Virus record (IMG/VR): IMGVR_UViG_3300042691_032761
Source of the DNA: a virus
Direction: 5' to 3' (one strand)
DNA length: 64,000 bases
Part shown: positions 5,730 through 55,434 of the stretch, piece after piece
Layout of the letters: the number at the start of each line of letters is the position of its first letter
Numbering within the stretch: the first letter of the stretch is position 1
Notes under the pieces: model-generated
What the model was told of the DNA's origin: nothing
What the model saw: the letters and a program-made list of their open reading frames with translations, nothing else
The model's database searches: none
Program-made: the position numbers and the translations under genes

Positions 5730-5910
5730 TCAACGCCGCAAGCCCCGGTGGCGTCCCACCGAGGCTATGCGGTTCGATAGTGTTGTCATCTTACTATCTT
5801 ATATAGTAATAATCTCTAAAGGGTAGACAACTTCGTGGTTACCATCCACTTATCTGGTTGGTTAGACCCCTTTAGGTTGCACCTTTGGCCTTGCAACGAG
5901 CCATCTTACC
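5730..5910 (-). ncRNA. candidate structured RNA leader upstream of tRNA-Arg
   Basis: No ORF; stems GTTGCA/TGCAAC, CTAAAGGG/CCCTTTAG, TTACTAT/ATAGTAA, CCGCA-AGCCTCGGTGG/CCACCGGGGCT-TGCGG. Confidence 0.45.
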
Positions 5911-6192
5911 TATTACGCGGGAGTTACCCCGCCGCACTATGCCTAAAATCTATTTATACTGGCATAGTCCAGTGATATTCAACTTTCGATAAGCGTAGCC
6001 TTGGTTTCGGTTCCAGTAGCATCATTTGCAAGATTCAACTGGTCATTCAACCATCGAACAAACTCGCTCTTATCAAAATCTTGATTATCTGTAATCTCAA
6101 CTGTAAACTTCATAATATTCTCTCTTTCTTATTACGCGGGTCGAAACCCGCCGCACTATGCCTAAAACCTGTTTATACTGGCATAGTCCAGT
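5911..6192. repeat. 63-nt structured direct repeat (5911-5973, 6130-6192)
   Basis: Identical except for a 6-nt hairpin loop and one compensatory pair. Confidence 0.85.
5979..6113 (-). CDS. 44-aa hypothetical protein between the 63-nt repeats
   Basis: MKFTVEITDNQDFDKSEFVRWLNDQLNLANDATGTETKATLIES; purine-rich RBS. Confidence 0.6.
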   Translation of the reverse strand: MKFTVEITDNQDFDKSEFVRWLNDQLNLANDATGTETKATLIES

Positions 6193-10033: not shown

Positions 10034-10294
10034 TTATGGCGACCACGGATAATCCTTTGGATATGGTTCGCTAGGCGGTTGCGGCTTGTCCTGTCCCTCG
10101 TCGGGCATCCACCACGGAGCATCCATATAATCTACATTTCCCCAAGATTCCCCACAATAGATATTATGAATACAAAACTTATCCTCATAGTTTATCTTAT
10201 AAACCCCACGCCACACACCAATAGCCTCACCATAATAGATGATCTTTTGGCCGTTGATTGGGCGACGAGGCCCGTGAAAACTAATCCACTCCAT
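10034..10294 (-). CDS. hypothetical protein (DUF551-like)
   Basis: MEWIS...PxxGQ N-terminus and WMP C-terminal pattern. Confidence 0.55.
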   Translation of the reverse strand: MEWISFHGPRRPINGQKIIYYGEAIGVWRGVYKINYEDKFCIHNIYCGESWGNVDYMDAPWWMPDEGQDKPQPPSEPYPKDYPWSP

Positions 10295-10455
10295 TATACC
10301 CTCATTGCTATCTTTTCGTATTCACTAATCAAATCTGCTACCGTTATACCATGCTCTTCTGCTAAAGTCAATGCCTCTTTCTTAGCAGGACTCATAATCA
10401 ACATGGCATTCTTTAGAACCCTGAGAATCTTAAATATTGCTTCTTCTTTAGTCAT
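10294..10455 (-). CDS. hypothetical protein
   Basis: Start MTKEEA with GGAGG RBS. Confidence 0.6.
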   Translation of the reverse strand: MTKEEAIFKILRVLKNAMLIMSPAKKEALTLAEEHGITVADLISEYEKIAMRV

Positions 10456-10715: not shown

Positions 10716-10774
10716 AACTTTTCTCCTTGTGCTACCATTCTACTCTAGTATTATCGTCAAGTCAATAGGAAAAA

Positions 10775-11168
10775 ACCAGCGAATCTTTTACGCCCCGATT
10801 CTATTGTCCTGGTGGCTACCCTGTTACGGACCATAGGAAACCGCCCACGGAAATCCTTCCTAGGCATAGTTCATGACTCATGCTGTCTGGCTCTTGGGAA
10901 CGGTTACTGGTTGTATTGTAATGAGTTTAGGCTGCTCTCGCCGTTTCCGTGCTGCGCTTTCCTAGTTGGCTCTTTTATACGTTATTTATCCAACTAGCCT
11001 ACTCATTGTATTACTCGTGGTCTGGATGCAATCCCACATAGATTAGCACTACTATACAGCGTATAAGCCCGCTGTCAACCCACAGCCCGATGTGACGGTA
11101 GGTTTATCGTAATGGCTTATCCTAATCTAGTCCCTCAGCATGGACCCACGGATGTTTGTTTTGTCTTA
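10775..11168 (-). ncRNA. candidate large (about 390 nt) structured ncRNA
   Basis: Own promoter at 11176-11203, no credible ORF, many nested complementary stems, hairpin plus U-tract at the end. Confidence 0.6.
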
Positions 11169-11306
11169 CTCTTTCATTCTACACTCTATTATCGGCCTGT
11201 CAAGAGCATGATCGTGAGAAAATAAAAGATTCCGCCCGCCCGCGGCCTCGCCCTAAGTCCTTTGTTTCCAAAGGGTTAGGGTTAGAGGCTTTAGCGAGAA
11301 GACGGC

Positions 11307-11714
11307 TTAGAACATCATTGCCGCAACACCGCTCTTGAACAGAGCCCCACCCAAGAGGGGGCGACGGCAGTTCACAACGCGCTCTGCGTAGAAGTTGCGA
11401 ACAGTACCATCGGGACTCTCACCAGTAATAAGGTGATGAGTACGCTTGAACTTACTATCATTTCGTCGGTAGTTGCTAGTAGCATTCAGCCGACTAATCT
11501 GATTATCATTCAGCGTACAAACATCACGCACCTTGACCATATAACGCTCAGGATCACCCTTGTGAGGCTGGAGATACTCAAAGTTATACACTTCTCCAAC
11601 CCTAGCCGAACTCAGACTAGCGTTCACGCCAGAGTAAACATGAAACAACACAAAAGCAACAACAACACCAACCACACCAACGGCAAACAGACCATAAGAA
11701 AAAACATCAGTCAT
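11307..11714 (-). CDS. membrane-anchored WYL-like protein
   Basis: N-terminal TM helix; VYNFEY...ERY...GTVRNFYAERV resembles the WYL RxF...RI pattern. Confidence 0.55.
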   Translation of the reverse strand: MTDVFSYGLFAVGVVGVVVAFVLFHVYSGVNASLSSARVGEVYNFEYLQPHKGDPERYMVKVRDVCTLNDNQISRLNATSNYRRNDSKFKRTHHLITGESPDGTVRNFYAERVVNCRRPLLGGALFKSGVAAMMF

Positions 11715-44652: not shown

Positions 44653-47600
44653 ATGTCAAGATCTTTTAATTTAACAGCAGAATTAAATTTAAGAGGACCA
44701 TCTAATATTCGGCCGATCATTGCTGATATTAGAAGGCAGTTGACTGGTATAACAGCAAATGTTAATGTAACAGTTAATAATACGACTACTCGTAATGTCA
44801 ATAATCTACAACAGTCTGTTACTAGATTAAACACCGCCCTCACCGCAACAAGAGGAACAGCAACAAATGCTACCGCAGCACTAAATGCTTTTGCAAGAGC
44901 AGCGGCAAATGTTAATAATAATATTGGAAATATACCTCGTAATTTAACTAGAATTAATACAGGTGCTGGTGCAACAACTACTACTCTTAATCAAGTTACT
45001 AGAGCCACTCAGCAAGCAACAGTTGGTTTTGAAGACTTTGGTAGACAATCAGCATTGGCTGTTAGACGTTTTGCTGCTTTTGCAACCGTGACTAGCGTAA
45101 TATATAGATTCTCTAATGCGGTTACTTCTGCAACATCAGAATTCATAGATTTTAATAGAGAACTTGTTAGAGTTGCACAAGTTACTGATTCTAGTTTGTC
45201 AGAACTTAGACCACTAGTCTCTCAGATCACTAATTTGTCTACTAGCTTAGGCGTAGCATCTAAAGATTTGATTCAAGTTTCTAGTACATTAGCACAGGCT
45301 GGTTTAAGTGCAAGAGACACAGAAAAAGCTCTTAGGGCTCTTGCTCTTAGTGCGTTAGCCCCGTCGTTTGATAGCCTAAGCGATACAGTAGAAGGATCTA
45401 TTGCTTTAATGAGACAGTTCGGCATTAGTGCAGGAGATTTAGAGGATGCATTGGGTAGTGTAAATTCTGTTGCTGCAAAGTTCGCAGTTGAAGCAAGCGA
45501 CTTAATTACTGCTATTCAGCGTACCGGCGGTGTGTTTGCAACAGCAAGTAAAGGTGTTAGCGAGGGCAAGGATGCTCTTAATGAGTTTTTAGCTGTATTT
45601 ACAAGTATTCGTGCTACTACTCGTGAAAGCGCAGAAACTATTGCTACAGGCTTAAGAACTATTTTTACTCGTATTCAAAGAGCGGATACTATTGATGCAT
45701 TAAAAGCATTCGGAGTTACTCTTACTGATCTAGAAGGTAAATTCGTTGGTCCATATGAAGCTGTAAGGAGACTAAGCGAAGGATTAAGCAGACTCGATCC
45801 TAGAGATTTAAGATTTTCTCAAATTGTTGAAGAACTTGGCGGTTTTCGACAGATTGGTAAAGTGATTCCACTTATTCAGCAGTTTGCCACAGCACAAGCA
45901 GCGCTAAAGGTTGCTCAACAAGGACAAGGATCATTAGCAAAAGACGCATCAACTGCACAACAAAGTTTAGCAAATCAAATTGCTAAAGTACGAGAAGAAT
46001 TTACTGCTCTTATAAGATCATTAGGAGAAAGTTCCACATTTCAAACATTCGTTAGATTAAGTTTGGATCTTGCTAGCGCATTAATTAGATTGGCTGATAG
46101 TGCTAAAACTGTATTACCAGCATTAACTGCTATTGCTGCATTTAGGGGCGTCTCCGCTCTTACAAGGTTTGGTGCTGGATTTGCTGGTGGACTAAGAAGA
46201 CAAAATAATGGAGGTCCAGTAAGAGGATTTGCTAGGGGAGGAATAGTTCCAGGGGTAGGCAGCGGAGACACTGTTCCAGCTATGTTAGAAGCTGGAGAAT
46301 TTGTAATTAGAAAAAAAGCAGTAGAAAAAATTGGAGCTGGTAATTTACATAAAATAAATAAATATGCCACTGGAGGTAAGGTCAAAGATCTTTTATTAGA
46401 TAAGCCACTACTAAAAGCTAAATATGATACATCTAATATTGAGGATCTATATAGTTTTATAAGGATAGATAGGAGCAAACAAAATAAATTATCACAAAGT
46501 AGAGAAAAATATAGAGATAAAGCAGAACAAATATGGAGTCAAGCATCTTCTGCTTACTCTTCTAAGGGATCTCTTTCTGGTGCTAATACTTTAATAAGAA
46601 GAAAAACTGGAATAAATCTTCCATCTAAATTAAGTAGTAAAGATTTAAATCCAAATAATAAAGATAGTCAAAGACTAAATAAAATTCAAGGATCATTGGC
46701 AGAAAAAGAAGTCTATAATAAAATGGGTAATCTAAAACAATTACCAACAAAAGCTGGTGCTGACTTTACAATTGGTGGATCCGCAATCAACTTTGTTGAA
46801 GTTAAAAATAGACTAGAACCAACATCAGATAATGATTTAAGAGGAAAAGCATTACTAGGTCATCAATACCTTAGTGGAAAACAATATCTTAATAATAAGT
46901 TAGATAAAACTCCTAGACTAACTATTTCTTTATTTTCTAGCAATGAAGGAGATTATAAGAAAAAAAACTTTGGAGGATTAATTCAAAAATTTGCTCTCGG
47001 AGGAAAAGGAAGAGCATTAGGAGCACGAAGTAAATTTAAAGAATTAGACGCAAGCGAATTAGATAAACTTAGTACAGCTGATTTAATTAAGTATGCAAAA
47101 AGACAGGCTCGTGATATTTTTAGTACAGGCGGGGCTGGGATGGCGATGCGTAGCAGATTTATTGAAACCCCAGCAAATAAAATAATTCCAGAATTAGAGC
47201 CTCATTTAACATCATATATGGGGAAAAAAGGATTTTGGAGAGAAGAGATTGCCCCCTTTGGAAGACCATCAAAACAACAAGCAGCGAAAGCATCAAAAAC
47301 AGGAAGAGAAGCAGCTCTTAAAAAACAAGAAGCAAGACAAGCAGACGAAGTTGCGGCCAGAGCACAACAGTGGAAATTAATACGATCAGGATCTAAAATA
47401 GATTCTTATTTACTGTCTTCTTTAAAAGATCCTATTTTATCTGACTACAAGTCAGCCAAAGCTGGGCAGCCGCTAGCAAAAGCTTTTCATGATACTAGAT
47501 TAAGACAAGCTGTTAATCAAGCATTAGATAATTATGATGATTTTGATTATTCTCCAGCAAAGATCGATAAACTAGTTAGTGGAATGGCATCAAAAAGATT

Positions 47601-50600
47601 TGCAATAGGAGGATCTGTAGAAGATAAAGTTCCGGCACTATTAACTCCTGGTGAATTTGTAATTAATAAAAAAGCTGCTAGCAGAATAGGAGCTAGTAGA
47701 CTACATCAATTAAATAGAGCAGATAGAATTAAAGGATTTAATAAGGGCGGAGCTGTTGGAGGAATTCAGAAACTTGCTGCCGGCGGCTTTCCAACGGCTT
47801 TAACACCAGCTATGAGTGGACTATCCGCAAAAGAAACGGCTAGATTAAGTTCTGCTATAATGAATAATGTTGATGCTTTTAATACTTTGGAGGCTCAAGT
47901 TTCTGCTCTTCCAACAGATCAAATGTTGAAAGCTATGAGAATATTTGCCTCTAAACTTGAGGGAGGAGCAACAGATATAGACCGAGCGGCTACAGAAGCG
48001 GCAACATTGGCTCAATCTGGCGGTGGAGGAAGTAGACAGTCTAAAAAAGCAAGAGTAGCAAATTCTGGAGTTACGGTTGGGCCAGCGAATCCAACAACCG
48101 GAATAGTAGAAACAAGACCGACAACTAATCCTGCTGTTAGCGGTTTTGCTGCAAGTCAAGCTAGAATAAATCAAATATCTGCAAACGTTGGACAATATCA
48201 GGCTGGTCAAGATGTTGTTAGTCGTAGAGATACTGTATTAGGTGGTACTACTTCAGGAAATCTATCAAACGCTGGAATGCAACGACTTGCTCAACTAAAC
48301 CAAACAGGAGGAGGATTTGCTCAAAGAGGTCAAGATTATGCTCAAAGAGCACAGGTCTCATCTCAAAAAACTTATTCTGCAAGTTCTTTTGATCCAACAC
48401 AAATTTATCAAGGATTGGCTAAATTAAATCAGGGAATTGCAACAGCAGCTAATGGTTTAACTAGCTTAACTACAGCATCTAAAACTGCTGGTAGTGGTAT
48501 AATGTCTTTAGGCAAAGGAGCATTAGGAGCAGTTGGACGAGGAGCAGGAGGATTAGTTAGTAAAATTGGAGGAGGAGCTTTAAATATGGTGGGACTTGGA
48601 GGATTAGCTTCCAAAGGAGCAGGAGCAGCAATGGGTGGTGGTGGCGGTGGTGGAATGATGGGCATGGTGGCTATGATGGCAGCAGGGCCATTATTGGAAG
48701 CTGCAAGTCAGTCAATGGGAGGAGAAAAAACAGAAGCTGGAAGAAATACTACTGCTGTTGGTGGCGCTATGATGAATTATGCTGCTATTGGAGCAACACT
48801 AGGAAGTGTTATTCCTGGAGTTGGAACCGCTTTGGGAGGAGTTGTTGGAGCAGCGGCTGGTCTTGTTGTGGGTCTTCAGGATGCCACAAAAGCTAATGAA
48901 GAATATGCACAGAGTCAAAGAGAAGCAAAGGCCGCAACAGCATCAGATAAGAGTGGAAAAGCACTAGAAGCATACATGGCCAAACCTGGAGCTGCTCAAA
49001 AACAAGCTTTCATGAGTTCATTTGCTGCCACATCAGAAGCAGAAGCAGCCGTAAAAGCAGGAACAAAAAGACAAACAGCTAGTAGTTTTGGAAAAATGTT
49101 AGGATACCAAGATGAAAATATAAATGATTTTGCAGCAAGAACGGCTAAAACACAAACAGCAGGAGCCGATCAAGCCAAGCAATTTTTAACTGCTGAGATG
49201 ATGAGAACCGGTAAAAATTTTGGTGAAATTAGTAAAACTATGAGTCCAGAACAGTTTAAAACTCTAGCGACTAATATTGCAGAAGCAGATGAAACATATG
49301 CTTATTTCCAGATCCAAAGAGCTAATGAAATTAAAAAACTTAGAGATAGTGGTCGAGGAGCAGAGGCAGATGCTTTACAAGCACAGACCAATGCTGAACA
49401 AGAAAATTTAGCTAAAAATATTGCTGAACGTCAATTAGCAGAAGCATCAGCGGCCGCTCAGGCCAAAGCAGCATCAGAAGCTTCTAAAAAGCTAAATATG
49501 GTAATGATGCAAGCTGTTATGAGTCTTGAAAAATCATTTAATACAATGGAAGAGGTATTAAATAGATCAAGTTTTGAACTTGGACAAATATCTGGCAAAG
49601 CAGATGAAATTTTCAGTGGCAAAGCATCATTAACTAGCTCTACTTTTGCACAAACAAATAATGTTCTTCAAAATCCAAATGCTTACTCTGCGAAAGAAAG
49701 ACAAAATGCTATAAATAGTTCTGCCGCCAGAATGGGACCAGCCGGGGCATTAGTTGGTCGAGTAGCCACATTTGGTGCTCAAGCAACAGAAGAGGCTTCT
49801 AGAAGGGCTAATGCTGTGTTCAATGGTGGAGGAGATAACGAAGCTGTTGGTAATGAGGTTACTAGAAGTTTAACAAATAATATTCTTGCCACGTTTGGTC
49901 CAAATAGTTCCATGTCCCAAACCCTGATTGATGGTGTTAAACGAAGCGTAGACGAGGCAGTAAAAACAGCAAAAGAAAATGGAGAAACGCTCGATCCAAA
50001 TGAATTGGTAGAAAAAGCCACAGGACCACTAAATAGAGCTGCTCAACAAGCGGGTCAATTGTTAATTAAAAATAATGAGAATGTTGCTAAACACTTAGAA
50101 GAGTTGGGTAAGGTTGCTGAAAGAGTAGTAGAAATAGAAAATAGAAGAGTAGAAAGAACAGCAGCATTGGTAGAAATGCAAGCTCAGGGAGGAATATCAA
50201 CCAAAGAAGCACTAGGACAAAAAGTTTCTTTAGACGAAAGAATGAGCGCAAGATTTGCAGGAAGTAGAGCGAGATTAGGAATACAGGACCAAGCTAATTT
50301 TACTCCTCAAAATATTGCCAATATGAGATCTCAAGCTCAAAGAGAGCAAGCTGCATTACAATCACAAATAGATAGAAGATCAAAAGATGTTGGATCAGAC
50401 CCAACTGGCAGAGCAGCGAGAGAGGTTGCTAATTTACAACTAAAACTTGCTAAGGTAAATTCCACAATAGAACAAACTAATAAAGAATTAGAAGATTTAC
50501 CAGGAGCATTAGAAGGAGCTATTAGTGATGTAACATCAGAGATTCAAAATAGAGTAGCAAAATTAGATGCTCAAAAACAAGCATCAGGAGCTTTTGCTGA

Positions 50601-53600
50601 AAAATTAGTAGGAAGCACTCCACAGGAATTGGCTGAATTAGGTAGAACATTTAATTTATTAGATTCTACTCTTAGAGGACAAATAACAACAGTGCAGCAA
50701 TCACAAGTTGCTCAACAAGCATATATTCAATCTATACAAGAAGGAAAAACAGCACAAGAAGCAATGACTGATGCTCAAGCAGCATTTGCTAATGAAAATA
50801 AAAAAGCATTAAGCTTATTTGGAGAATTGACTCAGATCGCCGGAATAGAAGGCCCAGAACTTGACTTAATGAAAGCAGATTTATTAGAAAATTTTGCAAA
50901 AGCACAAGGAGCAGGACTAGAAAATAATCCATTCTTCCAAAGATTGTTAGGAATACTTAGACAAGATCCTGCTCAAAGAGCACAAAACGATCCAGTCTTA
51001 AAAGCTTTACAAGCAAGAATGACAGAACTAAGAGAGCAGCAAGTAGAAGCTGTAAGACTACAAAACGAAGCTGATAGAGGTATTCAAAAACAACTATTAG
51101 AACAAGTTGGTCAAAATATTATAACAAGTTTGGAAGCTACGCAAAGAGCATTTGTTGCAGCAATGAACGATATAGCAATGAGAATGGGAGCGGCTCCTCC
51201 TAGACCAATGCCAGCCAGACCTCGTTCTACCGGAGGATTAATATACGCATCAAATGGACAATATGTTAATTTTCAACCAAAAGGAACAGACACAGTTCCT
51301 GCTATGTTAACTCCGGGCGAATTTGTGGTTAATGCTAAATCCACAAAGGAAAATTTAGGTTTATTAATGTCTATAAATAATAGTCGCGGAGGCAGAATAA
51401 GTTATCTTGCTGATGGCGGAATGTCTGATATTTCCGGAGTCTCATCAAGAACTCAGTCTGCAAAACAAGAAGATATGGCCAGAAGTGGATTAATTAACCA
51501 AAGAGCACTAAGTAATAAAATTGATACCGTTAAAAGCTTATCTAATAATATTAATTCTACCACATCATTTACTAAAGATAATCAAATTCCATCATTAGAT
51601 GGATCAATAGATAACAATCAATCAATTAATAATAAACAATTTAAATCATTATTAATTGGAGTAGATAAAATTTCCAAAGTTATAGAGAATAAGAGTTCTA
51701 AGGGATTATCTAGAGGAGGAGTCGTTTATGCCAGCAGCGGAGGATACATAGGCAACGGCACTCCCGCTATGCTTTCGCCGGGAGAGTTTGTGGTCAACCA
51801 AGCTTCTGCTAAAAAATATGGTGGAGTTTTACAAGCTATAAATAGACAAGATGGTGGAGGCACACCATTTAGCGTTCCTGTATTAGATATGACTAAAGAT
51901 AATAAAGATGGTGTTTTTGTCAGAAGTCGTTACAGAGGACCGAGAGATAAGTTTATGTCCGCTAGAGAAGCAGCATCCGCTGGCATACCGTATAGCACTG
52001 GCACAGGATTTAATACAACTTATTTTGGAAAAAATACAGGAATTACTAAGGCAGACTTTGATGCTTTAACTAAACAAGACGAAAAAGATTTTTCTATATT
52101 CAATCATCCAACATTGGTTTCTCAAGGAAGACAAGCAGCTTTTACTGCTGGCTTGGCAGAAGGAGTGCCGGTCGGTGTCGCTTCATCAACAGCCGGAACC
52201 GCAGCAGCCGCTGGAACAGGAGTTGCGGCTACGGCACTAGGAGTAACAGCACCAGCATGGCTACCAGTGGCTTTAGCAATAACTGCTGCGATTGGAGCAG
52301 GATATGCTATGTCAAAATTGGCAAGAGCAACTTCTAATAAAGCTCTTGCAGCAGGAGGCAGTAATGTTACGATGGATATGATGCAGGAAGATTATCCGTT
52401 ATCTTTTATGGCTGGATCAACACTTGGAGACGCAATTGGTGGAGTAGGCGGGTCTAAATTAGGCTCACAAGCGTTCTCTGGAACATTATCTAAACAACAA
52501 GAGAAATTATTAAGACTAAAAACTATAAAAGAACGTAAAGAAGTTAACGCTGCGATATCTGAATTTAGAGAAAGAGTTGTAGCAAGATGGGAGGATATGT
52601 CTGAATTGGAAGCCTCAGCAATTTCTAGAATGTCAGGGCGTAAAACAGATTTAACTGGTCAAGAAATAATTGATTCAGCTACAGCAAGATTAAAATTATT
52701 AAATCCAAAAGCTAATCCAGATGACTATCTTCCAATAGATTTAGACACAAGGGTTATTAAGGATCCTTTTGGTGATGGTACTATTGGATGGCACAGAAGG
52801 AAAGGTAGAAAAGGAACACCAGAAATACGAACAACAGATCCTCAAGATTTAACTGTTTTACCTCATGAAGCTATTCATGCTATGATTGGAGAAAATCCTC
52901 AAATCCGTGATCTAACGATGGATTTCATCATCAAACATGAAGATTTAATTCAAGAATGGTTATCTAAAACAAAAATGACTGGATATAATTTAGATACTAT
53001 GAAATATGGGACTTCATACAGAATGAGGCAACTTGAGACGAAAATTAATTATACAGATATTCCATCGGTAATTGAAACAGAAAAACTTTTTGCTAGAGCT
53101 TTAAGCGGTAAAGAAACTGCTTCATTAGATTTTATACAAAACACAAAAGGTGGATTAGAATATATTGATAGATTATTAAAACAACAGTCTTCCAGAAGTT
53201 TTTTCACAGATGAGTCAGAAATAATAAAATGGGTTGATAAAAAATGGGATAGATCTAGTTTAGATTCCCTCAAAAAAACCATAGATGATTTTAGAAATAG
53301 AGATAAAAAACTTTATGAAGATATAATGACACATATGGGACCTGGAGGGTATCCCGGAGTTGGAACAAAAAGACTTCCAAAAGATTTGTTAGAATCTTTG
53401 AACGAAATATTTTCTCCACATGCCTCCAGAGCTGGGCCAGAAGAATTTTTAGCAACATTAGCTCAAGATGATTTAACAGGAAATGCTGCTGGTCAACAGT
53501 TGCAAAGACTCGTACAAAGAGAAATATTTGAAAAAGCCGATCAAATAAAATATAAATTTATGGGCTTTCCTGAACGACCCATTGTTGGAGTACCAGAAGG

Positions 53601-55434
53601 ATTAGAAGGATTTAATAATGGTGGTATGGTATATGCTTCAGAAGGCAAATACATAAATTTCAAACCAAAGGGCACGGACACTGTTCCCGCGATGCTAACT
53701 CCAGGAGAGTTTGTTGTTAATGCTAAAGCCACTAAAGATAATTTATCGACATTGCAAGCTATTAATACTGGATACTATGAAAGAGGTGGAATTGCTGGTG
53801 TTGATCCTAGTCCAAGTAATTTTGCAAGAAGTATTGTTGGCATGAGAGGAGCCAGAATTAACCAATTAGCACAACAGGGTAAATATTATGTTTATGAGGG
53901 TAATACAGCAATATTAGATGATGATAATGGTAGATTTCCTAATAGATATGCGTCTGTTAGCGGAGCCAGAAATATACAAGAAGCAATTGAGCTTGCTAAA
54001 CAGAAATATGAATGGTTCGAAGGAGGCGGATATTCCCTTAAAGAAGCCTCTGCGATTGAAAGAGGACGTATGGGTTCGACAACATTGGCAGATAAAATAA
54101 TAGACGAATTACAAGATCAGATAATTGAGGGTGGTCCAAGATTATTTACCTCAACAGGATTTAATCAAAAAAATAAACAAGATAAAATTAATGAAATTAT
54201 AAAAAAAATAGATGAACAAGGCGCAAATCCTCAAGAATTATATAGGAAAGCCACCAAAAGACAAAATTATTTAAGACAAGTTGAAAATAATACTAGACTT
54301 GGTCTTAATGTAATAGCAGGATCTGATAGAACAATAAATCTCGGAGGAAGAAGAGAACTATTAGCAACAAAGCTTCTAGAATTACAAAGAGATTATGCTC
54401 AAAAAGAATTAAGTCTTATACCTAGAGTTTGGGATGATATAGCCACAATGAAAGGATATCAAGGCTTACCAAGAGATTACACAACATCTTTTAATGCTCT
54501 TAATCCTAGTAGTCTTCCTGGTCCTGAATATTTTAGTTCTGGCGGCATGTCAATGCCTAAAAAATTTGATAAAACAACCGATCCGGCAGATCGTATTTTG
54601 CAAAGAGCTAATGAAGCAAGATTAAACAACTTTTCGAATATATACGAGTCCCTTTTAGTGAAAAAATATGGAAAATCTATCAAGCCATTTCGTAATACTG
54701 ATGTTTTAGAAAATCTAAGACAATATCAAGAATTTGATTCTCTTTCTGATGAAGAACTAAGAAGTCTAGAAACACAACATATACAATCAAAAATAAATAA
54801 ACAATCAAGATTAAATAAATTCAACTCAGGAGGAATAGTATACGCAAACAAAGGAACTTTAGTTCCTTATCAGCCCAAAGGCACAGATACTGTTCCAGCA
54901 ATGTTAACTCCAGGAGAGTTTGTAATAAATAGACAAGCATCTCAAAAACATCTTGGATTATTACAATCTATCAACAATGGTAACTATTCAAGAGGAGGTC
55001 CTGTTTACCTTGCCGAAGGAACACAAGGAACACAAGCGTTTGATGCTAACATGACCTATTTATCGGATATCTTGAAAAAAGGAGCAGATACTCTAAATAC
55101 AGCATTTATAGAAGCTGTTAGAAAATTAAATAATATTGCTGATAATTCTCCTCAAATAAGACAGGGTACATCAAACGGTGTATCTAATAATCAGAGCAAT
55201 CCTTTGGCTAATATAGAAGCATTGGGCAATAGATTAGACCAGTTTATAGAACAACTAAAAAATGCGGTGCCTTCAACAGTAACTCTAGAGGTTCCAACAG
55301 CTATTCCAGTTAATGTTAATATAAATGGAGCAAGCATTCTTAAAGATGTTCTTGGTGGACCAATAGGAAATATCGTACAAAAAGCTATCAAAGATGCATT
55401 TGATGCAAAAAGTAGACAAAATGAAGGGTATTAA
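44653..55434 (+). CDS. tape measure protein (3593 aa) with inserted domains
   Basis: N-terminal TP901-type TMP core, Ala/Gln helical regions, Gly-rich hydrophobic segments, six DTVPAMLTPGEFV-type motifs. Confidence 0.9.
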   Translation: MSRSFNLTAELNLRGPSNIRPIIADIRRQLTGITANVNVTVNNTTTRNVNNLQQSVTRLNTALTATRGTATNATAALNAFARAAANVNNNIGNIPRNLTRINTGAGATTTTLNQVTRATQQATVGFEDFGRQSALAVRRFAAFATVTSVIYRFSNAVTSATSEFIDFNRELVRVAQVTDSSLSELRPLVSQITNLSTSLGVASKDLIQVSSTLAQAGLSARDTEKALRALALSALAPSFDSLSDTVEGSIALMRQFGISAGDLEDALGSVNSVAAKFAVEASDLITAIQRTGGVFATASKGVSEGKDALNEFLAVFTSIRATTRESAETIATGLRTIFTRIQRADTIDALKAFGVTLTDLEGKFVGPYEAVRRLSEGLSRLDPRDLRFSQIVEELGGFRQIGKVIPLIQQFATAQAALKVAQQGQGSLAKDASTAQQSLANQIAKVREEFTALIRSLGESSTFQTFVRLSLDLASALIRLADSAKTVLPALTAIAAFRGVSALTRFGAGFAGGLRRQNNGGPVRGFARGGIVPGVGSGDTVPAMLEAGEFVIRKKAVEKIGAGNLHKINKYATGGKVKDLLLDKPLLKAKYDTSNIEDLYSFIRIDRSKQNKLSQSREKYRDKAEQIWSQASSAYSSKGSLSGANTLIRRKTGINLPSKLSSKDLNPNNKDSQRLNKIQGSLAEKEVYNKMGNLKQLPTKAGADFTIGGSAINFVEVKNRLEPTSDNDLRGKALLGHQYLSGKQYLNNKLDKTPRLTISLFSSNEGDYKKKNFGGLIQKFALGGKGRALGARSKFKELDASELDKLSTADLIKYAKRQARDIFSTGGAGMAMRSRFIETPANKIIPELEPHLTSYMGKKGFWREEIAPFGRPSKQQAAKASKTGREAALKKQEARQADEVAARAQQWKLIRSGSKIDSYLLSSLKDPILSDYKSAKAGQPLAKAFHDTRLRQAVNQALDNYDDFDYSPAKIDKLVSGMASKRFAIGGSVEDKVPALLTPGEFVINKKAASRIGASRLHQLNRADRIKGFNKGGAVGGIQKLAAGGFPTALTPAMSGLSAKETARLSSAIMNNVDAFNTLEAQVSALPTDQMLKAMRIFASKLEGGATDIDRAATEAATLAQSGGGGSRQSKKARVANSGVTVGPANPTTGIVETRPTTNPAVSGFAASQARINQISANVGQYQAGQDVVSRRDTVLGGTTSGNLSNAGMQRLAQLNQTGGGFAQRGQDYAQRAQVSSQKTYSASSFDPTQIYQGLAKLNQGIATAANGLTSLTTASKTAGSGIMSLGKGALGAVGRGAGGLVSKIGGGALNMVGLGGLASKGAGAAMGGGGGGGMMGMVAMMAAGPLLEAASQSMGGEKTEAGRNTTAVGGAMMNYAAIGATLGSVIPGVGTALGGVVGAAAGLVVGLQDATKANEEYAQSQREAKAATASDKSGKALEAYMAKPGAAQKQAFMSSFAATSEAEAAVKAGTKRQTASSFGKMLGYQDENINDFAARTAKTQTAGADQAKQFLTAEMMRTGKNFGEISKTMSPEQFKTLATNIAEADETYAYFQIQRANEIKKLRDSGRGAEADALQAQTNAEQENLAKNIAERQLAEASAAAQAKAASEASKKLNMVMMQAVMSLEKSFNTMEEVLNRSSFELGQISGKADEIFSGKASLTSSTFAQTNNVLQNPNAYSAKERQNAINSSAARMGPAGALVGRVATFGAQATEEASRRANAVFNGGGDNEAVGNEVTRSLTNNILATFGPNSSMSQTLIDGVKRSVDEAVKTAKENGETLDPNELVEKATGPLNRAAQQAGQLLIKNNENVAKHLEELGKVAERVVEIENRRVERTAALVEMQAQGGISTKEALGQKVSLDERMSARFAGSRARLGIQDQANFTPQNIANMRSQAQREQAALQSQIDRRSKDVGSDPTGRAAREVANLQLKLAKVNSTIEQTNKELEDLPGALEGAISDVTSEIQNRVAKLDAQKQASGAFAEKLVGSTPQELAELGRTFNLLDSTLRGQITTVQQSQVAQQAYIQSIQEGKTAQEAMTDAQAAFANENKKALSLFGELTQIAGIEGPELDLMKADLLENFAKAQGAGLENNPFFQRLLGILRQDPAQRAQNDPVLKALQARMTELREQQVEAVRLQNEADRGIQKQLLEQVGQNIITSLEATQRAFVAAMNDIAMRMGAAPPRPMPARPRSTGGLIYASNGQYVNFQPKGTDTVPAMLTPGEFVVNAKSTKENLGLLMSINNSRGGRISYLADGGMSDISGVSSRTQSAKQEDMARSGLINQRALSNKIDTVKSLSNNINSTTSFTKDNQIPSLDGSIDNNQSINNKQFKSLLIGVDKISKVIENKSSKGLSRGGVVYASSGGYIGNGTPAMLSPGEFVVNQASAKKYGGVLQAINRQDGGGTPFSVPVLDMTKDNKDGVFVRSRYRGPRDKFMSAREAASAGIPYSTGTGFNTTYFGKNTGITKADFDALTKQDEKDFSIFNHPTLVSQGRQAAFTAGLAEGVPVGVASSTAGTAAAAGTGVAATALGVTAPAWLPVALAITAAIGAGYAMSKLARATSNKALAAGGSNVTMDMMQEDYPLSFMAGSTLGDAIGGVGGSKLGSQAFSGTLSKQQEKLLRLKTIKERKEVNAAISEFRERVVARWEDMSELEASAISRMSGRKTDLTGQEIIDSATARLKLLNPKANPDDYLPIDLDTRVIKDPFGDGTIGWHRRKGRKGTPEIRTTDPQDLTVLPHEAIHAMIGENPQIRDLTMDFIIKHEDLIQEWLSKTKMTGYNLDTMKYGTSYRMRQLETKINYTDIPSVIETEKLFARALSGKETASLDFIQNTKGGLEYIDRLLKQQSSRSFFTDESEIIKWVDKKWDRSSLDSLKKTIDDFRNRDKKLYEDIMTHMGPGGYPGVGTKRLPKDLLESLNEIFSPHASRAGPEEFLATLAQDDLTGNAAGQQLQRLVQREIFEKADQIKYKFMGFPERPIVGVPEGLEGFNNGGMVYASEGKYINFKPKGTDTVPAMLTPGEFVVNAKATKDNLSTLQAINTGYYERGGIAGVDPSPSNFARSIVGMRGARINQLAQQGKYYVYEGNTAILDDDNGRFPNRYASVSGARNIQEAIELAKQKYEWFEGGGYSLKEASAIERGRMGSTTLADKIIDELQDQIIEGGPRLFTSTGFNQKNKQDKINEIIKKIDEQGANPQELYRKATKRQNYLRQVENNTRLGLNVIAGSDRTINLGGRRELLATKLLELQRDYAQKELSLIPRVWDDIATMKGYQGLPRDYTTSFNALNPSSLPGPEYFSSGGMSMPKKFDKTTDPADRILQRANEARLNNFSNIYESLLVKKYGKSIKPFRNTDVLENLRQYQEFDSLSDEELRSLETQHIQSKINKQSRLNKFNSGGIVYANKGTLVPYQPKGTDTVPAMLTPGEFVINRQASQKHLGLLQSINNGNYSRGGPVYLAEGTQGTQAFDANMTYLSDILKKGADTLNTAFIEAVRKLNNIADNSPQIRQGTSNGVSNNQSNPLANIEALGNRLDQFIEQLKNAVPSTVTLEVPTAIPVNVNINGASILKDVLGGPIGNIVQKAIKDAFDAKSRQNEGY

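Follow-up and report, generated by a model that had tools for sequence, protein, structure and literature searches.

Genomic context of the RNA locus

The window (the whole stretch of 64,000 nt analysed here) comes from a 75-kb IMG/VR virus record that is about half complete. Between 1 and 19 kb every gene is encoded by the minus strand and many promoters of a near-consensus sigma-70 type precede them; the early region around the RNA locus contains seven tRNA genes and two pistol ribozymes. The latter (window 6130-6192 and 5911-5973, minus strand; 57 and 54 bits) are each flanked by small ORFs and placed a short way ahead of a ribosome-binding site, and pistol ribozymes were also found in the homologous loci L012, L014 and L016. 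About 180 nt without an ORF, rich in self-complementary segments, lie between the second pistol ribozyme and tRNA-Arg (window 5730-5910, minus strand) and possibly constitute further stem-closed modules of a similar array. In the structural region, a single plus-strand ORF of 3,593 aa (window 44653-55434) was read as a tape measure protein.

At the locus itself, the order along the minus strand is the end of a 135-aa gene at 11307, a promoter, an RNA region of about 400 nt, a second promoter and an 87-aa gene. The RNA region consists of three modules, A, B and C, each with its own terminal helix and joined by A/C-rich linkers of the AAUACAA type. The elements delimiting it are:

11203-11176, minus strand: sigma-70-type promoter TTGACA-16-TAGAAT
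11151-11170, minus strand: unpaired A/C-rich (ACA-rich) leader, of the same kind as the linkers between the modules
10770-10775, minus strand: U6 tract, directly 3′ of the P1 3′ strand and preceded by GCUGG
10765-10737, minus strand: downstream promoter TTGACT-17-TAGAAT, outside the RNA and serving the 87-aa gene

The first of these promoters had already been named in an earlier note on this DNA and is confirmed, matching the consensus at 11 of 12 positions; transcription would start near 11169-11170. The identical promoter and leader GUAAGACAAAACAAAC stands ahead of module A in the loci L005/6, L008, L017 and L051. The claim that the region holds no ORF with a ribosome-binding site is likewise correct: the longest minus-strand ORF within it spans 36 aa and overlaps module C, and none is preceded by a Shine-Dalgarno sequence. 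In the homologs, complete sense ORFs have a median length of 14 aa in module A and 21 aa in module C. That A and C encode a tag peptide or another small ORF was rejected, as the reading frames vary among the homologs.

For the 3′ end, the earlier note had assumed a hairpin followed by U6. The U6 tract is present at 10775-10770 and is probably the end of the transcript; what precedes it is the branched P1 helix of module C instead of a simple hairpin, and a scan for intrinsic terminators lists none at this position. Across the homologs, 21 of the 22 C copies with a U-run of at least 5 nt behind them have another promoter no more than 30 nt away. Of the 46 C copies lacking such a run, 41 are not close to any promoter and continue into other RNA modules, a tRNA or an ORF. 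This association fits P1 plus U6 acting as a terminator at the ends of arrays. The 87-aa gene has a Shine-Dalgarno sequence between the downstream promoter and its start. In metatranscriptome run X20, the only RNA run containing part of the 1.5-kb stretch around the locus and searched as strandless contigs, the single contig covers 11539-11705, i.e., the upstream gene, outside the RNA; this speaks neither for nor against expression of the RNA.

The earlier note had further described the region as highly base-paired. Measured by folding energy it is not: the whole unit reaches a z-score of -0.67, and 21 of 100 dinucleotide shuffles fold as well. Calculated per module with RNAfold, the z-scores are -1.4 (A), -3.4 (B) and -0.2 (C), so that only B stands out. 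Because the energy is no better than that of shuffles and Rfam contributes no match, the case for a structured RNA rests on comparison among homologs.

Homologs of the RNA region in uncultured phages

With the upstream protein as the query, eight related viral contigs were recovered (52-82% aa protein identity over all eight). The RNA region, module A in particular, is about 84-86% identical at the nucleotide level to its counterparts in L005/6 and L008, although the neighbouring protein shares only 60-66% of its amino acids there. A 26-nt pattern taken from the 3′ end of module C and matched exactly retrieved 44 viral contigs, a looser pattern from its 5′ part 87 contigs (a handful of them GC-rich coding false positives), and a pattern for the core of module A a further 87 metagenome contigs. 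Searching with the window's module A alone, nhmmer found 41 loci, and blastn also recovered relatives. Judged by these sequence matches, A and C are kept in well over 150 phage contigs; the contigs of the carriers range from about 11 to 230 kb.

Covariance models built for C (R1) and A (R2) identified 92 copies of C and 88 of A in 98 sources. The window, which is among the seeds of both, scores 171.7 bits with R2 and 126.9 bits with R1; it matches the consensus of both modules over their full length, with A preceding C, and its own genome carries exactly one copy of each. A distant-mode blastn search of 50,697 records of cultured or deposited phages yielded no match, and the exact 26-nt C pattern had no match in 185,579 prokaryote species genomes (one genome each, this exact pattern). 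The public DNA sequencing runs containing the stretch come from 14 studies and were for the most part made from freshwater metagenomes; six of them, dated 2019, are labelled "fungus metagenome". A and C belong to two conserved RNA families under structural constraint, which are restricted to contigs of uncultured phages, mostly from freshwater.

Structure of module A

The helices of module A were derived from the covariation alignment and the minimum free energy (MFE) fold, and are as follows:

11150-11016, minus strand: module A, tRNA-shaped RNA, 135 nt
11150-11146/11020-11016, minus strand: acceptor-like terminal stem, 5 bp, CGUGG/CCACG
11145-11142/11133-11130, minus strand: D-like hairpin
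11129-11122/11046-11039, minus strand: long stem S1, 8 bp
11114-11109/11052-11047, minus strand: stem S2
11104-11101/11080-11077, minus strand: stem S4, enclosing a variable hairpin
11075-11070/11061-11056, minus strand: hairpin S3, 6 of 6 pairs covarying
11120-11115 with 11068-11063, minus strand: pseudoknot between the S3 loop GGCUUAU and AUAAGCC 3′ of S1, three covarying pairs
11036-11031/11027-11022, minus strand: T-like hairpin beside the 3′ strand of the terminal stem

The check among homologs that the earlier note had proposed, covariation, is strongly positive. In alignment A2, with 28 distinct A sequences, 97% of the cells are paired, and in 20 of 45 pairs both partners have changed; controls with slid partners gave 2-6 such pairs, and none of 500 shuffles was as good. 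Covariation extends to 28 of 39 pairs when 65 distinct sequences are used, in an alignment that was fitted to the model and hence leans towards it. The single-sequence MFE fold of the window copy by RNAfold reproduces the module A helices.

Nine pairings had been proposed for the region in the earlier note, of which six are real or plausible and three are not conserved. Within module A, the pairing 11016-22/11143-50 corresponds to the acceptor-like stem and 11039-46/11122-29 to stem S1, and both covary. The pairing 11063-69/11114-20 is real as well, yet it is a pseudoknot of a hairpin loop with an upstream strand, whereas 11071-75/11082-86 had to be given up since it clashes with hairpin S3. 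The same hairpin accounts for a supposed internal promoter, TTGACA-16-TATAGT at 11078-11051, which consists of the 5′ flank and stem of S3: the hexamers vary among homologs (TTGCCA ... GATAGA) in step with the covariation of the stem, marking them as structure and not as a conserved promoter. Stems S2, S3 and S4 of module A, as well as P1, P2 and P4 of module C, had been overlooked.

In outline, module A resembles a tRNA in which a pseudoknotted body may be taken to replace the anticodon loop, with an insert of about 75 nt at the position where a tRNA cloverleaf has a 7-nt loop on a 5-bp stem. "TRNA-shaped" is used here as a structural reading and assigns no family, because ARAGORN calls neither an intron-containing tRNA nor a tmRNA: at default settings with introns allowed none of the 28 A sequences was called, and at an 80% threshold the calls became inconsistent. 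An N-CCA follows the stem on its 3′ side in 29 of 65 homologs, but AGUA stands there in the window. In the same copy the T-like hairpin has a loop of 3 nt and no T-loop, and a canonical-looking T-loop/T-arm appears only in some divergent members (L010, L012b, L015). At L044:12360-12435 lies a "mini-A" of about 75 nt, near tRNA size, without the pseudoknotted insert.

There is a formal likeness to tmRNA, with which A shares a tRNA-like acceptor/T end, a long helix leading to a pseudoknot-containing body and, often, CCA in the 3′ flank. TmRNA was nevertheless rejected: neither ARAGORN with option -m nor the Rfam tmRNA models gave a match, and no frame is maintained across the indels of the variable hairpin. 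In tmRNA the third acceptor pair is G3-U70, whereas it is U-A in module A in all but the gapped rows of alignment A4; tmRNA also has a tag reading frame with resume and stop codons, several pseudoknots and a canonical T-arm; A has no tag frame and most copies lack a canonical T-loop. Other tRNA-like RNAs are exemplified by the bacterial YrlA molecules, which are Y-RNA-like.

Structure of module C

Module C was resolved from alignments A1, A3 and A6 and is organised as a four-way junction:

10912-10774, minus strand: module C, four-way junction, 139 nt
10912-10906/10780-10774, minus strand: closing helix P1, 7 bp, AACCAGU/GCUGGUU, invariant
10905-10899/10845-10839, minus strand: helix P2, beside the invariant CGUGGR
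10883-10880/10867-10864 in the window, minus strand: class-variable inner hairpin
10837-10808, minus strand: optional hairpin P3, absent in several phages
10801-10797/10785-10781, minus strand: hairpin P4, 5 bp (5-6 bp across the family)
10796-10786, minus strand: P4 loop GGGGCGUAAAA, 11 nt, nearly invariant

P4 directly abuts the 3′ strand of P1 without any spacer. The inner hairpin and P3 fall into at least five unrelated sequence classes, each of which still forms a stem; the pairings 10834-39/10857-62 and 10806-09/10828-31, listed by the earlier note for this part, are lost in homologs. The first sets of C sequences had been selected by patterns within P1, P2 and P4, so the fair test of these helices is an unbiased set of 63 distinct copies, found by the model in contigs that were chosen via module A only. 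Among these, four of the five P4 pairs and two P2 pairs covary, the other changes in P2 being of the wobble type. P1 is invariant across more than 120 distinct C sequences and hence shows no covariation; its pairing is supported by complementarity together with extreme conservation. This invariance also hints that P1 is read sequence-specifically. The 7 bp of P1, continued without a gap by the 5 bp of P4, correspond to the 7+5 layout of a tRNA acceptor/T minihelix.

Together, these alignments make it practically certain that A and C are real RNA families. Hairpins arisen by chance, coding sequence in decay or a gene for a small protein might be invoked on the grounds of the shuffle-level folding energy and the 36-aa ORF across module C, but these readings can be virtually dismissed in view of the massive compensatory covariation, of indels that are not multiples of three, of the loss of the ORF where the hairpin class changes, and of a nucleotide conservation of the RNA exceeding that of the neighbouring genes.

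An invariant helix, a CGUGGR bulge and an 11-nt loop combined with variable stems are a pattern typical of ribozymes, so C (or A) could be an unrecognised ribozyme, whether self-cleaving or catalytic in another way, with the task of processing the array, like the pistol and theta ribozymes. HDV-like ribozymes, to which theta belongs, have a nested double pseudoknot (P1, P1.1, P2-P4) and cleave at their 5′ end. For module C an HDV-like (theta) assignment was rejected: its 5′ end pairs with its 3′ end, no upstream P1 strand exists and Rfam gives no match. A catalytic role is more generally made attractive by the position of C next to tRNAs in some phages and by pistol ribozymes in the same phages, and one study describes theta ribozymes as flanking viral tRNAs (PMC10879173). 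Like A and C, the theta ribozymes (PMC10879173) and the pistol ribozymes of this region are small structured RNAs within phage tRNA or ncRNA arrays; A and C differ from them in fold and match none of their models. We give the catalytic reading only a small chance, since no Rfam ribozyme matches even at E≤10, the topology of C lacks the nested double pseudoknot, and a U-run terminator often follows C, which is at odds with self-cleavage according to Weinberg et al. (PMC5737381).

Module B and the linkers

Between A and C, the window carries an inserted cassette and its two linkers:

11008-11015, minus strand: linker A-B, AGUAAUAC
11007-10920, minus strand: module B, inserted cassette of about 88 nt, closed by AAUGAGU/ACUCAUU
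11001-10996/10933-10928 and 10997-10990/10969-10962, minus strand: inner stems of B, predicted by RNAfold
10913-10919, minus strand: linker B-C, ACAAUAC(AA), the recurrent AAUACAA junction

Three of the pairings in the earlier note (10920-26/11001-07, 10928-33/10996-11001 and 10962-69/10990-97) are the stems of this cassette; they are plausible and reproduced by RNAfold. No credible homolog of B emerged from nhmmer against 98 loci (one weak match, E 0.015) or from a pattern search of viral contigs, so its structure rests on one sequence. Module B is missing from L005/6 and L008, where A abuts C, and metagenome contigs from three independent runs join 10910 to 11006 or 10918 to 11014. Since these contigs skip B, forms without B circulate in the same waters.

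Array architecture

The order of the two families is strict: for 87 of the 92 C copies (~95%), an A precedes them on the strand they share. Among these 87, A and C are adjacent in 50, separated by one cassette in 26 and by more in 11 (0-3 cassettes overall). The inserts are diverse, comprising stem-closed RNAs, a second A, a second C or true tRNAs, all flanked by the same linker. When 80 contigs were chosen by A alone, they yielded 71 C matches.

Such an order could mean that A and C are one two-domain RNA and not separate products. They would then be the 5′ and 3′ domains of a single molecule of about 290 nt or more, for instance an RNP scaffold or a larger ribozyme, with a hinge tolerating inserts like B. 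Besides the order and the frequent adjacency, the recovery of C from most A-selected contigs and the single copy of each module in the window's own genome speak for it. Nonetheless, C occurs without A in L039 and L097 (in the latter directly after a promoter and before a tRNA), both A and C occur in tandem, and true tRNAs stand between A and C in L022 and L050, where C lies directly 3′ of them. Every module is, moreover, closed by its own terminal helix, and the summed contig depths of A and C are several-fold apart in the same samples. A scan for covariation between A and C, which is a weak test, found no stacked Watson-Crick signal, with columns that were mostly G/U-promiscuous; nor did CGUGG of C with CCACG of A, or the P4 loop with UUACG of A, show matching covariation. 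We therefore consider a single RNA rather unlikely. The earlier note was right in seeing a multi-domain structured phage ncRNA here, whereas its single RNA of about 390 nt gives way to three stem-closed, independently recombining modules.

The tandem copies are C at L096:6521-6763, one of them a minimal 94-nt form, and A at L012:7333-7642 and L067:3387-3832. The C of L097 (L097:11501-11601) is a minimal form too, 101 nt long, beginning right after a -10 box and followed within about 12 nt by a canonical tRNA gene. At least six further recurrent stem-closed modules with AAUACAA linkers were noticed (for example in L015:3346-3520, L027, L016 and L013), including one with GUCGGGCCGAGCAGCCGGUAAAAACGG and one with twin UUCAUCGGGUA hairpins; these had no Rfam match in the 13 loci scanned. 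In L009 (6303-6400), L014 and L054 a tRNA-like gene of about 98 nt with a long extra arm opens the array upstream of A, scoring 30 bits on the tRNA model in L054.

In metagenome assemblies, contigs break exactly at the module borders (10775, 10917, 11006-11014, 11157-11168 and 11203), and their summed depth is far greater for A than for C, which in turn exceeds B and the flanks. In runs X1, X6 and X8, contigs end or switch partners at the promoter and at module borders, and A reaches 50-80 times the depth of the flanking genes. Both the breaks and the order of depths are what one would expect of modules common to many co-occurring phages; shared RNA modules fragment the assemblies of lake phages.

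What follows C was classified for 65 contexts. In 21 of them, as in the window, a U-run and then another promoter come next; in 18 an ORF with its Shine-Dalgarno sequence, but no promoter, follows; 23 continue with additional RNA modules or tRNAs, and 3 have a promoter without a U-run. The 18 copies running into an ORF imply that some arrays also serve as mRNA leaders, and they are an argument for a purely cis-acting role as leader, stabiliser or complex terminator of the flanking protein genes, as is the probable termination by P1 plus U6 in the window. However, the gene downstream in the window has its own promoter, the flanking genes vary by locus and share no common function, 23 of the 65 copies lead into RNA modules or tRNAs, and the conservation is far above what a terminator needs; a cis-acting role is very improbable as the full explanation.

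Pfam and PHROGs searches with six neighbouring small proteins found no function. One protein of 53 aa (window 10294-10455, minus strand), which starts with MTKEEAIFKILRVL and has no Pfam or PHROG function, has homologs (MTKDEAI..., MTKEEAI...) that directly follow C in L015, L026, L047, L062 and L093, separated from it by a Shine-Dalgarno sequence only.

Comparison with known RNAs

Rfam 15 contains nothing that matches the RNA region at the gathering score or at E≤10, in agreement with the earlier note, which had been unable to assign it to tmRNA, RNase P or intron families and had suggested this search; ARAGORN adds neither a tmRNA nor a tRNA call. The tRNA model (RF00005) has no match between 10600 and 11350 at E≤10. 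A cmscan of the window (gathering score) and of 13 homologous loci reported only tRNA and pistol, and neither GOLLD nor ROOL.

RNAC and RNAD of phage T4 (species 1 and 2) are matured along with the tRNAs and have tRNA-like ends. They are small phage ncRNAs encoded near phage tRNA genes, of still unknown function, and are classed as late RNAs (PMC9697503). The unit in the window differs from them in lying among early-type consensus promoters and in possessing a pseudoknotted insert and exchangeable cassettes. When R1 and R2 were run on the whole genomes of T4 (NC_000866) and T5 (NC_005859), the best E values were about 0.09-1, i.e., noise; these matches, the best at 0.12 and 0.088, fell on the wrong strand or inside promoters, outside the tRNA regions.

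GOLLD and ROOL are structured RNAs of unknown function, often phage-borne and located near tRNAs (PMC5737381). A and C resemble them in combining a conserved core with variable peripheral stems, and differ in size, being 135-140 nt each compared with roughly 580-800 nt. Multimeric cages, as described for these ornate large RNAs (10.1101/2024.12.08.627333), are not indicated for A and C. A large survey of IMG/VR gives predictions for about 8,500 structured RNAs without a name, tRNA-like ones included, and its unnamed candidates number 10,006 (PMC10690425). As far as the catalogues go, the A-C system is undescribed.

Proposed function and significance

We propose that the host RNA polymerase starts at the promoter at 11203-11176 and produces a non-coding transcript of about 400 nt, which would end at the P1-plus-U6 element (10780-10770) and comprise three autonomously folding RNAs on single-stranded AAUACAA linkers. 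Host tRNA-maturation enzymes may then cut the linkers and the tRNA-like helices, RNase P at the 5′ side and trimming or CCA addition at the 3′ side; the unpaired, ACA-rich linkers would be natural cutting sites, and the acceptor-like stem plus T-like hairpin of A, like the P1/P4 stack of C, could offer the geometry that RNase P, trimming and CCA addition call for. Three stable products would result, about 135, 88 and 139 nt long. They may serve as tRNA mimics without an anticodon, acting in trans early in infection on a highly conserved host component of tRNA handling or translation, much as has been proposed for the stable RNAs encoded in tRNA clusters of phages. A conserved partner is argued for by the loops and P1, which are near-invariant among phages with very different genes. 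Weighing against tRNA mimicry, both ARAGORN and the Rfam tRNA model miss A and C. For the package as a whole, a co-transcribed precursor cut into stable, tRNA-mimicking small RNAs that act in trans, we see slightly better than even prospects.

In a variant, A and C would together form one new tRNA-mimicking device, be it a new class of ribozyme or a trap for a host factor of tRNA processing or translation, whose hinge takes up exchangeable folded cassettes bounded by the 7-nt AAUACAA junction. This is clearly unlikely; if true, phages would possess something like an integron for RNA modules.

Stable RNAs of unknown function have been known from phage tRNA regions for fifty years (RNAC and RNAD of T4), and the recent structures of GOLLD and ROOL illustrate that phage RNAs of such a kind can do unexpected things. 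RNA family databases have no entry for A and C, and adding one would help to annotate "gene-free" stretches in the genomes of lake phages. With two compact families of 135 and 139 nt, a well-determined secondary structure, a pseudoknot, very strong conservation and clear modular exchange, the system is a tractable candidate for biochemistry.
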